Positions 27,359 through 31,607 of a stretch of 64,000 nucleotides of DNA are shown here, one piece after another. The position numbers and the translations under genes are program-made. A model generated the notes under the pieces. That model worked only from the letters and a program-made list of their open reading frames with translations, did not search any database and was not told the DNA's origin. The DNA is taken from assembly GCF_946184425.1 (NCBI RefSeq), contig NZ_CAMHFP010000008.1:112-64111 (forward strand), in the 5' to 3' direction. This DNA is from an uncultured Methanobrevibacter sp. GTDB taxonomy: Archaea; Methanobacteriota; Methanobacteria; Methanobacteriales; Methanobacteriaceae. Numbering within the stretch: the first letter of the stretch is position 1; each line of letters opens with the position of its first letter.

Positions 27359-29478
27359 TTAAAAATAAAGTTATCAGTTCCCTAAAAACAATGATAACAA
27401 CAATATTGCTAATTTTGTCCAACATTGTTGCAATAATAATCGTTGATTACATTTCAGGTGATTTTAGTTACGGACCTTGGTATAATTTATTTATTATTGT
27501 AATAGGAGTTTTCATAGCCAATTCTCTCCTATGGCCTTTTTTTAGAAGATTTTTAATGAAATACATAATATTGACATTTGGAATTGGTGCACTGATTATC
27601 AACTCCTTAATTTTTTATATTGCCACATATTTCATTCCAGGAGTTTATGTAGGGATTTACGGATTTTTTGAAGCTCCGATTTTCATGGCAATCGCTACAA
27701 CATTTGTTACAAATATTACAAACACAAACTACTTTGACAGATATATTAAAATTATACTAAATTATGCGCTTAAACGGAAATCTTCCATTAAAAAACAATA
27801 TCCCGGAGTCATAATGGTTGAAATTGATGGCCTTTCAATCAATACCTTAAAAAAAGCACTTGACAAAAATATGATGCCCACACTTAAAAATTGGCTTGAT
27901 GAGAAAACCCACACTTTGAAAAAATGGGAAACCGATCTTTCTTCACAGACAGGAGCTAGTCAAGCGGGAATATTGCATGGTAACAATGAAAATATTGTGG
28001 CTTATAGATGGGTTGAAAAGGCAAACAACAATAAAATTATCGTTTCAGGAAAATTAAGCCATGCCCCAATAATTGAAAAAAGAATAAGTGACGGCAATGG
28101 GTTGTTAGTTAATGGAATTAGTGTGGCAAACATGTTTTCAGGTGACAGTGAGATATCCGCCCTAACTTCCTCAAAATTAGAAAAAATAAACAAAATATAT
28201 AATAAAACACTTCATTCAGTATTTCTTGACTCACAAAATTTCCCTAGAATTTTTGTATTATTCCTATGGGATATTTTGGTTGAATTAAAATCACAGTTAA
28301 TGCATGATTTGAAAAATATACAGCCAAGATTAAGAAGAACAATTGTTTATGCAGCAATAAGGGCAGGAGCTAATGTTGTTTTAAGAGAAGCAACAACAGA
28401 TGTATTGACCAATGAGATATTAACTGGAGATATTGACACCGCTTATGCGACATTTATGGGATATGACGAAGTGGCACATCACTCAGGAGTTCAGGATGAT
28501 GACGTGTGGGGAGTTTTAAAACAGATTGATGTTCAGATTTCCAGATTAATCTCCGCAATTGAAATGAGTGACAGAGATTACCAGTTAGTAATATTGTCCG
28601 ACCATGGACAAAGTAACGGTGCAACTTTCAAACAAAGATACGGAATAACATTGAGAAATTACGTTAGAAGATTACTTCCAGACGATTTAAAAGTTTTTGA
28701 AAATAAATACAATATCGACCACTTCAGAGACGCACTTATGCCAGAAAATAAGCAATTAAAAACTATTAAAGAAAAAGTTAAAACAATACGTGACGATTTG
28801 TTTGAAGAAGATGGATTATTGCATAATTTAAAAGATGAAATTGAAAATAGAAAACCTGCAATAATCTTTGAAAATGAACAATATAAAAACCTGCAAAAAA
28901 GATATTCAAACAGCCTGGATTATATTAAGGGATATGAAGCAAACGAACATAGTACCAAAAAGGTAAAAGATTCTGAATTGATTGTTTTAGGTTCAGGAAA
29001 TATGGGTTTAATTTATCTGACCCAATGGAAACAGCGTTTGAATTATGAGGAAATCGTTATGCTATTTCCTGATTTGATTCCAGGACTTGTAAAACATTCC
29101 GGAATCGGATTCATACTAGTCAATTCCATGCAAAATGGCGGAATGATTATAGGCAAAGACGGAATCTATTACCTTGACAGTGATGAAGTCGTTGGTAAAA
29201 ATCCTCTTGAAAAATTCGGCAAAAATGCTACAAGACATCTTAAAAGACATAATGATTTCGAGAATATGCCCGACATCCTAGTCAATAGTTTTTATGATGA
29301 AAAAAATAATGAAGTATGTGCATTTGAAGAATTAATAGGAAGCCATGGAGGGCTTGGAGGAGACCAAAGCAAACCATTTATTTTATATCCTTCAGAATGG
29401 GAAAATCCAGGAGAACTGATTGGTGCAGAATCCATTTATAAATTCTTGAAAAAAGAAATTAATGAACTAAATTCTTGA
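27355..29478 (+). CDS. DUF360 (4-TM 'phage holin IV'/YvlD-like) domain fused to an alkaline phosphatase/phosphodiesterase-superfamily domain
   Basis: N-terminal ANSLLWP..ILTFGIGALIINS..PGVYV; catalytic EIDGL, SQTGASQ, GYDEVAHHSG, LSDHGQ and GSHGG motifs; ATGA overlap with the upstream gene. Confidence 0.8.
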   Translation: MIKNKVISSLKTMITTILLILSNIVAIIIVDYISGDFSYGPWYNLFIIVIGVFIANSLLWPFFRRFLMKYIILTFGIGALIINSLIFYIATYFIPGVYVGIYGFFEAPIFMAIATTFVTNITNTNYFDRYIKIILNYALKRKSSIKKQYPGVIMVEIDGLSINTLKKALDKNMMPTLKNWLDEKTHTLKKWETDLSSQTGASQAGILHGNNENIVAYRWVEKANNNKIIVSGKLSHAPIIEKRISDGNGLLVNGISVANMFSGDSEISALTSSKLEKINKIYNKTLHSVFLDSQNFPRIFVLFLWDILVELKSQLMHDLKNIQPRLRRTIVYAAIRAGANVVLREATTDVLTNEILTGDIDTAYATFMGYDEVAHHSGVQDDDVWGVLKQIDVQISRLISAIEMSDRDYQLVILSDHGQSNGATFKQRYGITLRNYVRRLLPDDLKVFENKYNIDHFRDALMPENKQLKTIKEKVKTIRDDLFEEDGLLHNLKDEIENRKPAIIFENEQYKNLQKRYSNSLDYIKGYEANEHSTKKVKDSELIVLGSGNMGLIYLTQWKQRLNYEEIVMLFPDLIPGLVKHSGIGFILVNSMQNGGMIIGKDGIYYLDSDEVVGKNPLEKFGKNATRHLKRHNDFENMPDILVNSFYDEKNNEVCAFEELIGSHGGLGGDQSKPFILYPSEWENPGELIGAESIYKFLKKEINELNS

Positions 29479-30312
29479 AAGCCAATAGTCCAAAATTTCC
29501 CCAACATTTTCATCAAAACTAATTGTATTATTCTTATTTTCAGGTATTGCATCAGGAAAATCTTTATTTAATCTTATTAATGTTGCATCAGAATTATTGT
29601 AAGTCATCTGTTCAAACGGGTATCGTATGATTCCTGGAGTGTTATAGCCGACTCCAATTTCCAAAAATACAATTTTGCCATCAGCATTATTCAAGAAATT
29701 GGAATAATTGTTATTCATCTGATGCCATTTTACATCTTCGACAAAAGTGTTGTCCACTCTTAAGTTCAATTCCATTTCCTCTCCGCAAACTGGACATTTA
29801 GGAACCAAATCAGAAGGTATTTTAAAATCTTCAGTTTTATCCAACCATTCAAATACCTTGTCTTCATTAGAGTACAGTTTATCATGACATGGTTTACTGC
29901 ATTGCAATAGTCCATAATCGCCCTGAGTTGCAAAAATTCTTTCATCATCAAAACCATTTATCCAAAATTGTGACTCAACGTTAGTTGTCAAAACAAAATA
30001 ATCCTTTTTTTCAACTAATTTCAACAGTTTTTGATAAACATCTGTTTTTCCAACATCATACCTATTTGCAAATATATGTCTTGCCCAGTAGGCCCATTTT
30101 TCTTCGGATGTTTTAAATGGGTAAAATCCGGATGAATACATATCTGTAAAATTATATCGTTCAATAAAATCTTTAAAATATTTTTCAAAACGTTTTCCAG
30201 TATATTCAATTCCTGCTGCAGTAGAAAGTCCCGCACCTGCACCTATAAGAATATGATCAGCATCATCAATAGCTTTTTTAGCTTTATCCAGTCTTAAAAC
30301 AAACTTATCCAT
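29467..30312 (-). CDS. Class M sirtuin (SirTM), predicted mono-ADP-ribosyltransferase
   Basis: GAGAGLSTAAG, TTNVE, ATQGDY (Gln at the canonical catalytic His position), CSKPC..CPVC zinc site and LEIGVGYNTP. Confidence 0.88.
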   Translation of the reverse strand: MDKFVLRLDKAKKAIDDADHILIGAGAGLSTAAGIEYTGKRFEKYFKDFIERYNFTDMYSSGFYPFKTSEEKWAYWARHIFANRYDVGKTDVYQKLLKLVEKKDYFVLTTNVESQFWINGFDDERIFATQGDYGLLQCSKPCHDKLYSNEDKVFEWLDKTEDFKIPSDLVPKCPVCGEEMELNLRVDNTFVEDVKWHQMNNNYSNFLNNADGKIVFLEIGVGYNTPGIIRYPFEQMTYNNSDATLIRLNKDFPDAIPENKNNTISFDENVGEILDYWLSRI

Positions 30313-31112
30313 TAACCATCACCAAATAATAATTTTTTATAAATCGAATAATCCTCATCAGTAAAGACATTGAAAATTACATGTTTCAAAGTGGTCTCAG
30401 TATTGTTTAAAAATTCATTTACTGTTTTAATTGCAATTTCCGCAGCCAAATCCTGAGGGAAATTAAAAACACCTGTGGAAATACAACAAAATGCAATTGA
30501 TTCCAGATTATTGTAACTTGCAATATCCAAACATGACCTATAACAGCTTGCCAAATCATTTTTGTCTTTTACAGATGGTTTTGAACCCGGATTAATTGCA
30601 GGGCCAACTGTATGGATTACATACTTTGAAGGTAAGTTATAAGCGCCCGTAATTCTTGCACTTCCAACTTCCTCATCCCCATCATGAACTTTCATGATTC
30701 TGTTACACTCCTCCCTCAATTGCAAACCTGCTGCAGAGTGAATCACATTATCAATGCAGCTGTGCATAGGAATAAAACAACCCAGTAATTTGGAATTGGC
30801 AGCATTGACAATGGCATCAACATTTAAAGTTGTAATATCACCCTGCCACAACATTATTCTATCTTTTACCTCATCAATATCTTCAACGGAAGTTAAATCT
30901 TTATCTAATGTTTCCTTTGTTAAAAATTCATCCTGAACTTTTAAAAACTCACAGGAAAGTTCACCAGGCATTCTTATATTCATCAGTGCCCTCAACAAAT
31001 TTCTTTTTGACTGATAATCATCGGGAATGTTAATATCATCATCATGTTCATCAGCCAGATATCTAATTAAAAAATCCAACTGTTCAGCAGTGTTTATTTT
31101 AATCCCTCCCAC
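30312..31112 (-). CDS. Zinc-dependent macrodomain protein-ADP-ribose hydrolase
   Basis: [31 protein letters not shown] (Zn loop C-x4-H-x-C), HTVGP and CCISTGVF motifs; TAATG coupling to the sirtuin. The start codon is uncertain. Confidence 0.9.
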
Positions 31113-31223
31113 AATAGTTACTAAATAATTTAATTTAAGGTATTTAAATGATTTTTGTAACTTTTAAGAAACCAGGTGAGAAAAAAGTAACCATTTAAAT
31201 AATAATTAAATCAATTTTTAATT

Positions 31224-31607
31224 ATGAATAATGAAAAAATAGTTTGTCCCGTCGATAAAACACTGAATTTAATCAGTAAAAAATGGAGTATTCAAATTAT
31301 TCGTGACATGTTTTTTGGAAAAAAACATTTTAAGGAATTTAAGGAAGATAAACCTAAATTAAGCAATAAAGTATTGTCAAATTGTTTAAAAGATTTGGAA
31401 GAAAATGGATTAATTGAAAAAAGAGTTTTGAATACCACTCCTATCACTACAGAGTATTACTTAACAAAATATGGACAGTCTATGAATAAAATCGTTTATG
31501 AACTCGCCATGTTTACATTAAATGATGAATTGGATGACAGCTATCCTGAAGATAAAAGGAATGAATTAAAAAATAATTTCAAACAAACTTTAAGAATTGA
31601 TGATTAA
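31224..31607 (+). CDS. HxlR/DUF24 family winged-helix transcriptional regulator
   Basis: CPVDKTLNLISKKWSIQIIRD, LSNKVLSNCLKDLEENGLI and EYYLT motifs. Confidence 0.9.
   Translation: MNNEKIVCPVDKTLNLISKKWSIQIIRDMFFGKKHFKEFKEDKPKLSNKVLSNCLKDLEENGLIEKRVLNTTPITTEYYLTKYGQSMNKIVYELAMFTLNDELDDSYPEDKRNELKNNFKQTLRIDD

Follow-up and report, generated by a model that had tools for sequence, protein, structure and literature searches.

A SirTM/Zn-macrodomain pair in Methanobrevibacter and its conserved link to a candidate thiol-sensing HxlR-family regulator

In a 64-kb window (the whole stretch of DNA analysed) of contig NZ_CAMHFP010000008.1 (assembly GCF_946184425.1), from an uncultured Methanobrevibacter sp., genes for a macrodomain protein carrying a zinc loop (Zn-macrodomain) and for a class M sirtuin (SirTM) lie together on the minus strand and face a divergently transcribed gene, hxlR, for a regulator of the HxlR/DUF24 family (Table 1). 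The macrodomain stop codon TAA (30314-30312) and the sirTM start codon ATG (30312-30310) have one base in common and read TAATG on the minus strand, and the two genes overlap or sit a few bases apart in other loci of the genus too. By this layout the macrodomain gene and sirTM are a translationally coupled bicistron. The original prediction for this DNA had described the zinc loop (CFIPMHSC), the TAATG coupling, a glutamine at the catalytic histidine position of the sirtuin (ATQGDY) and a divergent HxlR/DUF24 regulator with an N-terminal cysteine (VCPVD), and all four descriptions hold. The 111-bp gap that it gave between the macrodomain gene and hxlR (31113-31223) stands if the macrodomain gene begins at GTG 31112, but comparison with relatives points to a later start. 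Among the 14 loci listed, the codon found 6 nt past the GGAGGG ribosome-binding site is ATT in most, ATG in three, and ATA (31097) in the window; in one locus (L007) an in-frame TAA lies immediately 5' of the ATT start candidate. ATA 31097, giving a protein of 261 aa, is more likely to be the real start than GTG 31112. This suggests an eraser gene with a conserved weak, non-canonical start codon, to which the writer gene is coupled via TAATG.

Table 1. Features of the SirTM/Zn-macrodomain/HxlR locus (positions are those of the 64-kb window).
Feature	Position	Strand	Evidence
Membrane phosphodiesterase/nucleotide pyrophosphatase-family (NPP) gene, 707 aa, left edge of cassette	27355..29478	+	PF01663, PF04020
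sirTM, class M sirtuin, predicted NAD+-dependent protein mono-ADP-ribosyltransferase (writer), 281 aa	29467..30312	-	PDB 5a3a match
Gln130 codon, replacing catalytic His of deacylating sirtuins	29923..29925	-	ATQGDY aligned with HIQGEY
TAATG stop/start overlap of macrodomain gene and sirTM	30310..30314	-	read from sequence
Zn-macrodomain gene, predicted protein-ADP-ribose hydrolase (eraser), 266 aa from GTG 31112	30312..31112	-	NF003163, PDB 8rsi
Zn-loop CFIPMHSC (Cys112, His117, Cys119)	30756..30779	-	Cx(4)HxC motif; aligns with CFIPMHNC of 8rsi
GGAGGG ribosome-binding site of macrodomain gene	31104..31109	-	conserved at 90% or more across 32 orthologous loci
TTTAAATA, putative TATA box of macro-sirTM operon	31141..31148	-	lies in conserved block ATTTAAAT
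Operator-like block between TATA boxes	31149..31192	.	TGATTTTTGTAAC ... GAAACC ... GT.AC ... AAAGTAAC
TTTAAATA, putative TATA box of hxlR	31195..31202	+	TATA-like box at same position in orthologous loci
hxlR, HxlR/DUF24-family winged-helix regulator, 127 aa	31224..31607	+	PF01638, E 1.7e-21
Cys8 codon of hxlR, putative N-terminal sensor Cys	31245-31247	+	aligned with YodB, YybR/HypR
cbiE (cobalt-precorrin-7 C5-methyltransferase), right edge of variable cassette	31597..32247	+	NF004459, 357.8 bits (cut-off 298)

The sirtuin aligns with Streptococcus pyogenes SirTM (SpySirTM, PDB 5a3a) over residues 8-271 (E 1.2e-58) and with the sirtuin half of a Fusarium macro-SirTM fusion (8rsn, E 9e-27). 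It has no match to the Pfam SIR2 model and only weak matches to NCBIfam deacylase models, as expected from the divergent class M, which is defined by glutamine in place of the catalytic histidine of deacylating sirtuins (PMC4518038). Its ATQGDY motif aligns with HIQGEY of SpySirTM, placing Gln130 at the position of Gln137; Asn111 (TTNVES) corresponds in the same way to Asn118 (TTNADN), and Arg185 to Arg192. All three of these residues are needed for the activity of SpySirTM (Rack et al. 2015, PMC4518038). The window SirTM was aligned with a copy 59% identical to it, a paralogue at 36% identity, SpySirTM and the Fusarium domain. Over these five rows there is no variation at Gln130, at Arg185 or at the four zinc-ribbon cysteines (138, 142, 173 and 176), and Asn111 is kept in 4/5 rows, with alanine in the Fusarium fusion. 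With glutamine for histidine, the arginine and asparagine kept, and linkage to a macrodomain, the protein has the features of a class M sirtuin, and it is predicted to retain every residue needed for ADP-ribose transfer from NAD+. A separate canonical CobB-type sirtuin is present in the genome.

The macrodomain protein scores 354.9 bits against NF003163, 'protein-ADP-ribose hydrolase' (cut-off 272). The closest solved structure is MorMacro of Methanobrevibacter oralis (PDB 8rsi, E 3.4e-117), which aligns over residues 6-265 including the N-terminal extension; the match to SauMacro has an E value of about 2e-71. The loop C112-FIPM-H117-S-C119 fits Cx(4)HxC, the published Zn-loop motif of Zn-macrodomains (PMC11490716). 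A NAAN motif is present (VNAANS), and the 8rsi alignment covers both the N-terminal three-helix-bundle region and the MacroD-type core. As the catalytic zinc loop is kept, the macrodomain is predicted to be able to remove the mark set by the writer. The two genes almost certainly encode a writer and an eraser of the SirTM/Zn-Macro type.

The pair is of a published type, as the original prediction had supposed, and an ordinary example of it; a minimal methanogen pair without its known target has already been published: the same 'minimal operon' was described for M. oralis, with crystal structures 8RSI, 8RSJ and 8RSK (Ariza et al. 2024, PMC11490716). The window module shares with it the genus, the two-gene layout, the Zn-loop type and the lack of co-encoded GcvH-L and LplA. 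In that paper, MorMacro is unable to demodify S. pyogenes GcvH-L, lacks the positive docking patch and removes Glu/Asp-linked ADP-ribose from PARP1; minimal-operon macrodomains as a group are inactive on GcvH-L, and what lone SirTM/Zn-Macro pairs modify, and which physiological role they have, is still called elusive. The paper has the pair stand by itself, with no regulator named, and in the sections used here the archaeal sirtuin half is uncharacterised; at the window locus, by contrast, there is an hxlR gene and an operator-like block. The extended operon of Staphylococcus aureus and S. pyogenes (PMC4518038) encodes GcvH-L together with Zn-Macro, SirTM and LplA2, plus OYE and LLM. It has a homologous writer, with Gln, Arg and Asn kept, and a homologous eraser, and both systems are linked to redox stress, but the window module has no GcvH-L, LplA, OYE or LLM gene nearby.

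The regulator matches PF01638 with 76.3 bits (cut-off 20.8) and has the family's winged helix-turn-helix. It aligns with YybR/HypR and YodB (E about 1e-14), and Cys8, in VCPVD, aligns with the N-terminal cysteine of these Bacillus subtilis proteins. YodB, HypR and QsrR are thiol-sensing HxlR/DUF24 regulators, in which oxidation or alkylation of the cysteine releases the protein from DNA. The window HxlR resembles them in Pfam family, in the N-terminal cysteine (YodB, YybR/HypR) and in being encoded divergently to its presumed target genes. It differs in being archaeal and only 33-40% similar to them, and its second cysteine (Cys54) is off the position of Cys49 in HypR and is absent from the bacterial HxlRs linked to such pairs.

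Within the genus Methanobrevibacter, SirTM is found in 71/103 species genomes. A survey of SirTM neighbourhoods with a phylogeny, which the original prediction had proposed as a check, was run at this level, and the 75 SirTM hits were classed by hit coordinates and fetched flanks. Type A, the arrangement of the window (NPP> <sirTM <macro, hxlR> cbiE>), accounts for 56 loci. In type B (7 loci) the genes are co-directional (hxlR> macro> sirTM>) at another chromosomal site, and the HxlR is about 60% identical. Type C (6 loci) has the pair between the NPP gene and cbiE without hxlR. One locus (G032) is relocated, with the pair alone at another site, and in one the class is undetermined as the contig end cuts the locus. 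The remaining hits are two distant SirTM-like paralogues without a macrodomain and two fragments, partial hits at contig ends. HxlR thus adjoins the pair in 63 of the 71 full-length pair loci, in two architectures, and the neighbourhood is therefore not due to chance. In genome G003 the module is present twice, once as type A and once as type B (L056 and C6:140662-141510). The nearest contigs found are rumen-derived (RUG) assemblies.

The SirTM tree is a quick LG+G4 analysis with a weak backbone and is read for supported nodes only. The copies of types A, B and C all fall into one clade (Shimodaira-Hasegawa-like approximate likelihood ratio test (SH-aLRT) 99), inside which type B is nested as a monophyletic group (100). 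Type C copies are scattered and imply at least three changes, and the copy of G032 falls together with a bacterial sequence (95). The module would date from the ancestor of this Methanobrevibacter lineage or from early in its history, with repeated losses. Four high-quality genomes without SirTM have the NPP gene immediately next to cbiE, with no hxlR beside cbiE, which had suggested a strict three-gene cassette gained or lost as a unit. The six type C loci weaken that idea, and remnants point to stepwise, secondary losses of hxlR and of the pair: one type C locus (L061, G013:C8) keeps an internal-deletion remnant of hxlR, MNSEK... joined to the C-terminal codons, the remaining type C loci retain the conserved promoter/operator block despite the loss of hxlR, and promoter remnants are recognisable before cbiE in 2/4 SirTM-less genomes. 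Loss of hxlR may have preceded loss of the pair. A decay series at one site can be laid out from L061 (G013:C8), L048 (G024) and L047 (G066).

The distant SirTM-like paralogue (about 35% identical, with the Gln kept; L065 1923-4822 (G013:C16) and L064 (G096:C141)) has no macrodomain beside it. It comes third in a translationally coupled operon, after a PNPOx-like gene and then a two-repeat TMEM175-like K+ channel gene, and this operon too is divergent from a gene for a cysteine-bearing HxlR. In the 64-kb window, tblastn found no match for a partner of the PNPOx-like, TMEM175 or C_GCAxxG_C_C kind. Beside a type B operon (L066 5650-6631), and also in the SirTM-less genome G007 (L036 1094-1875), an HxlR is encoded together with a small flavoprotein of 133-134 aa that is PNPOx-like. 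PNPOx and HxlR clusters of orthologous groups have been listed as co-varying between Methanobrevibacter smithii and 'Cand. M. intestini' (PMC11366006).

Outside the archaea, 77 bacterial loci were surveyed, one genome per species, with SirTMs 48-59% identical to that of the window; most are from rumen or gut Clostridia, Bacteroidales and Coriobacteriia. The window SirTM appears to cluster among such gut-bacterial SirTMs, whose pairs sit in flavoprotein operons that by their gene content would be controlled by HxlR or Rrf2. A hidden Markov model of HxlR has a match upstream of the pair in 37/77 loci (33 divergent, 4 co-directional) and downstream in 1/77, with upstream and downstream flanks about equal in total length (341 kb vs 349 kb). 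The N-terminal cysteine is present in 29 of the 30 pair-linked HxlRs that were aligned, the exception being the single downstream one. Between HxlR and the pair lie genes for PNPOx_N fused to 2x[4Fe-4S] (19 loci), an NAD(P)H-binding NAD_binding_10 protein (11), an Rrf2 regulator (9), radical SAM/SPASM (9), DUF1848 (7), nitroreductase (5) and flavodoxin (4). Five of our own open reading frame (ORF) clusters (c6, c10, c12, c15 and c18) were left out as spurious antisense ORFs of GC-rich bacterial loci. RefSeq annotation of two plasmid operons agrees independently with this gene content. The Roseburia plasmid operon is annotated as helix-turn-helix regulator, acgA, acgM, nitroreductase, 4Fe-4S/PNPOx protein, protein-ADP-ribose hydrolase, Sir2 and DUF1848, and that of Enterococcus casseliflavus plasmid NZ_CP068131.1 (L149) as Rrf2, short-chain dehydrogenase/reductase, hydrolase (Zn-macro), Sir2, PNPOx and NUDIX. 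The NUDIX enzyme of the latter could plausibly scavenge ADP-ribose downstream of the eraser. The archaeal and bacterial loci are alike in the divergent, cysteine-bearing HxlR upstream. They differ in that archaeal type A lacks the ACGX peptide, radical SAM/SPASM, nitroreductase, PNPOx-Fer4 and DUF1848, and in that the window HxlR belongs to a separate archaeal clade. A literature search gave no paper joining SirTM with HxlR, or HxlR with a macrodomain.

The spacer between the macrodomain gene and hxlR was aligned across 32 type A loci, with blocks counted as conserved at 90% or more. These are GGAGGG, ATTTAAAT (31142-31149; the minus strand reads TTTAAATA), TGATTTTTGTAAC, GAAACC and AAAGTAAC. 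A TATA-like box 22 nt 5' of the hxlR ATG is conserved as well, and from this spacing the hxlR mRNA is probably leaderless. By analogy with archaeal promoter architecture, TTTAAATA on the minus strand is a putative TATA box for the macro-sirTM operon. The spacer would then hold two divergent archaeal promoters sharing a 44-bp block, in which G(T/A)AAC repeats lie about 10-11 bp apart. Three GTAAC/GTTAC sites fall within the window's 111 bp, and of all 111-bp segments of the 64 kb just 0.27% reach at least three. The type B operon promoter has two GTTAC repeats and a perfect AGTTAC-N6-GTAACT palindrome beside an AT-rich box. Type A and type B thus have the half-site GTTAC/GTAAC in common, despite a different HxlR orthologue and location. 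A search of the window for a type-B-like palindrome, GTTAC-N6-GTAAC, gave 0 matches at up to 1 mismatch (0.7 expected), and type A therefore uses direct repeats only.

Downstream of the macro TATA box, TAGTTACTAAAT (31115-31126) matches 12 nt of a box, TTTTAGTTACTAAATGTAATTTTAATT, that is identical at two other promoters of the window (36680-36706 and 55818-55844) and holds AGTTAC-N5-GTAAT, near the type B palindrome. The GTTAC of TAGTTACTAAAT is not kept in most orthologous loci, which read GTTAAT. The box TTTTAGTTACTAAATGTAATTTTAATT may be a site for an HxlR paralogue.

The flanking genes mark the edges of the variable cassette. On the right, the hxlR stop overlaps the cbiE start region (window 31597-31612, TTGATGATTAAAATG), and in type A genomes the hxlR promoter probably drives transcription of cbiE. 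On the left, the NPP gene is convergent with sirTM, with a 12-nt overlap of the 3' ends, and is syntenic in loci with and without the cassette. Its 707-aa product, which no NCBIfam model matches, combines a holin-like N-terminus with four transmembrane segments (Phage_holin_4_2) and a type I phosphodiesterase/nucleotide pyrophosphatase domain.

The original prediction had noted that the 64 kb hold no gcvH-L or lplA. This is confirmed, so that the pair does not have the co-encoded GcvH-L and LplA2 of an extended operon, and the absence extends to the assembly (2.23 Mb, 83 contigs, 93% complete), where the proposed whole-genome profile search found neither GcvH nor LplA. With GCV_H nothing scores above the Pfam cut-off, the single 19-bit match being the biotinyl domain of a 548-aa protein. 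With BPL_LplA_LipB the sole protein found in the assembly is a 305-aa BirA (TIGR00121 214.7 bits, cut-off 83.1), whose gene adjoins pycA, encoding the biotin carboxylase subunit of pyruvate carboxylase. With Biotin_lipoyl the sole domain in the assembly is that of PycB, with an AMKM biotinylation site, and no lipoyl domain is found. There is no sign of lipoyl metabolism in the assembled 93%. Of the two alternatives that had been left side by side, a different substrate or action in trans on GcvH-L, the first is now favoured and the second disfavoured, both by the missing lipoyl system and by the inactivity of MorMacro on GcvH-L (PMC11490716). The substrate of SirTM is very probably something other than a lipoyl carrier, either a different protein or a thiol.

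On balance, although by no great measure, the locus is best read as a three-gene stress module in which a reversible protein mono-ADP-ribosylation switch is encoded with its own regulator. Comparative genomics suggests that the divergent HxlR would bind the conserved G(T/A)AAC-repeat block between the TATA boxes, and in the bound state would control both its own promoter, probably driving cbiE too, and the macro-sirTM promoter. By analogy, HxlR would let go of the DNA once its Cys8 is oxidised or alkylated, so that oxidant or electrophile stress would bring about production of the pair. SirTM would then add ADP-ribose to a protein, and the Zn-macrodomain would remove it. Functional coupling of HxlR to the pair is likely. 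That the signal is thiol oxidation or alkylation at Cys8, derepressing the pair, is evenly poised between true and false; this step draws on the analogy with YodB, HypR and QsrR together with the HxlR alignments. The possible thiol-redox control through HxlR that the original prediction had raised gains support, all of it comparative, from the 63/71 genus loci, the 37 upstream against 1 downstream matches in bacteria, and the cysteine in 29/30 linked HxlRs.

Several observations weigh against this account. In the six type C loci and in G032, macro-sirTM is kept but no hxlR adjoins it, and the regulator is thus not obligatory in cis. Since hxlR overlaps cbiE, it could mainly serve that gene. 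There are several HxlR paralogues per Methanobrevibacter genome (5 here), and because an N-terminal cysteine is common in the family, its presence says little in favour of redox sensing. The type A repeats are direct, not the single palindrome that is the typical form of HxlR-family operators, and the repeat block overlaps the expected positions of the transcription factor B recognition element, so that part of its conservation may be plain promoter conservation. In the HxlR tree, into which no unlinked bacterial HxlRs were taken, one clade unites every Methanobrevibacter HxlR, whether linked to a pair or not, and a second clade holds the linked HxlRs of bacteria (both SH-aLRT 100). The link was therefore not inherited or co-transferred as one unit. 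Transfer of HxlR with the pair from bacteria is unsupported on the same ground, and independent recruitment of HxlR is possible.

A rival reading is an HxlR that is a mere syntenic neighbour, regulating itself and cbiE or an unrelated regulon, with macro-sirTM expressed independently from its own promoter. The hxlR/cbiE overlap and the pairs without an adjacent hxlR agree with this, and genus-wide synteny by itself is no proof of function. However, the HxlR link survives relocation and inversion in type B, recurs with the distant SirTM paralogue, and is found in 37/77 bacterial loci with a 37:1 upstream/downstream asymmetry, and SirTM-less relatives have no hxlR beside cbiE. A neighbour without a functional tie to the pair is accordingly unlikely.

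A toxin-antitoxin or anti-phage module like DarT/DarG, in which SirTM would arrest growth by ADP-ribosylation and the macrodomain would serve as antidote, is improbable. The eraser gene does precede the writer gene, with translational coupling between the two, an arrangement also seen in antitoxin-toxin operons, the module is patchy in the genus (71/103) with signs of inter-domain transfer, some homologues are plasmid-borne, and in DarT/DarG too a writer and a macrodomain eraser stand side by side. DarT, however, is not a sirtuin and modifies DNA. PADLOC defence models match neither SirTM nor the macrodomain, and the window pair has no defence-island context. There are only 4 weak phage matches, and the 35 plasmid matches are mostly distant. 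The chromosomal site is fixed and the SirTM clade spans the genus, suggesting vertical descent, and the bacterial neighbours are redox enzymes and stress regulators, not defence genes.

Still less probable is that SirTM modifies a small molecule or cofactor, such as a low-molecular-weight thiol or an electrophile adduct, with the macrodomain recycling the product in a detoxification route. Zn-macrodomains are the only hydrolases reported to cleave S-glycosidic Cys-ADP-ribose (PMC11490716), and enzymes of the nitroreductase, PNPOx-like, flavodoxin and NAD(P)H-binding kinds abound in the bacterial operons. Against this, all characterised SirTM activity is on protein (PMC4518038), MorMacro removes Glu/Asp-linked ADP-ribose from protein, and nothing in the window suggests a small-molecule pathway. 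Hardly tenable, and here rejected, is the idea that the pair has, as in Staphylococcus and Streptococcus, a lipoylated GcvH-L-like carrier as its target, here acted on in trans and encoded elsewhere: although GcvH-L is the only SirTM substrate known (PMC4518038, PMC11490716) and a small gene could be absent from an assembly that is 93% complete, a genome in which the three profile searches gave only BirA and PycB, without GcvH, an LplA-type ligase or a lipoyl domain, makes such action very unlikely, and the M. oralis orthologue both fails on GcvH-L and lacks the docking patch.

If the pair is part of an HxlR-controlled stress module, the regulator itself is one candidate substrate. In such a closed circuit SirTM would ADP-ribosylate HxlR, at Cys8 or at an acidic residue close by, and the regulator would be reset by the Zn-macrodomain. 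The idea is guilt by association, since the target of the extended operon is co-encoded and HxlR is the only co-encoded, co-varying protein of the Methanobrevibacter type A and B modules. The reported Cys-ADP-ribose hydrolysis by Zn-macrodomains keeps a thiol-linked modification, including one of HxlR, in consideration. Even so, the circuit is improbable. It would couple NAD+ availability to a thiol-stress regulon in a methanogen. A weaker variant has the PNPOx-like flavoprotein as the target; a protein of this kind recurs beside HxlR and SirTM in type B loci, at the paralogue locus and in 19/77 bacterial loci.

What is new relative to the published minimal operon is the HxlR link, together with the fully minimal archaeal form and a natural experiment within one genus, in which the module has two architectures that share a half-site and has been lost stepwise. 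Of the natural versions, that of Methanobrevibacter is the most stripped-down, consisting of regulator, eraser and writer in a genome where no lipoic acid metabolism was found, and the HxlR link offers a handle on the role of the pair. If control by HxlR is true, it would supply an inducing condition (thiol-reactive stress), a defined promoter/operator and very few candidate substrates. Gut and rumen methanogens, whose tolerance of oxygen and electrophiles matters for colonisation and for methane mitigation, would also be credited with a post-translational stress response.

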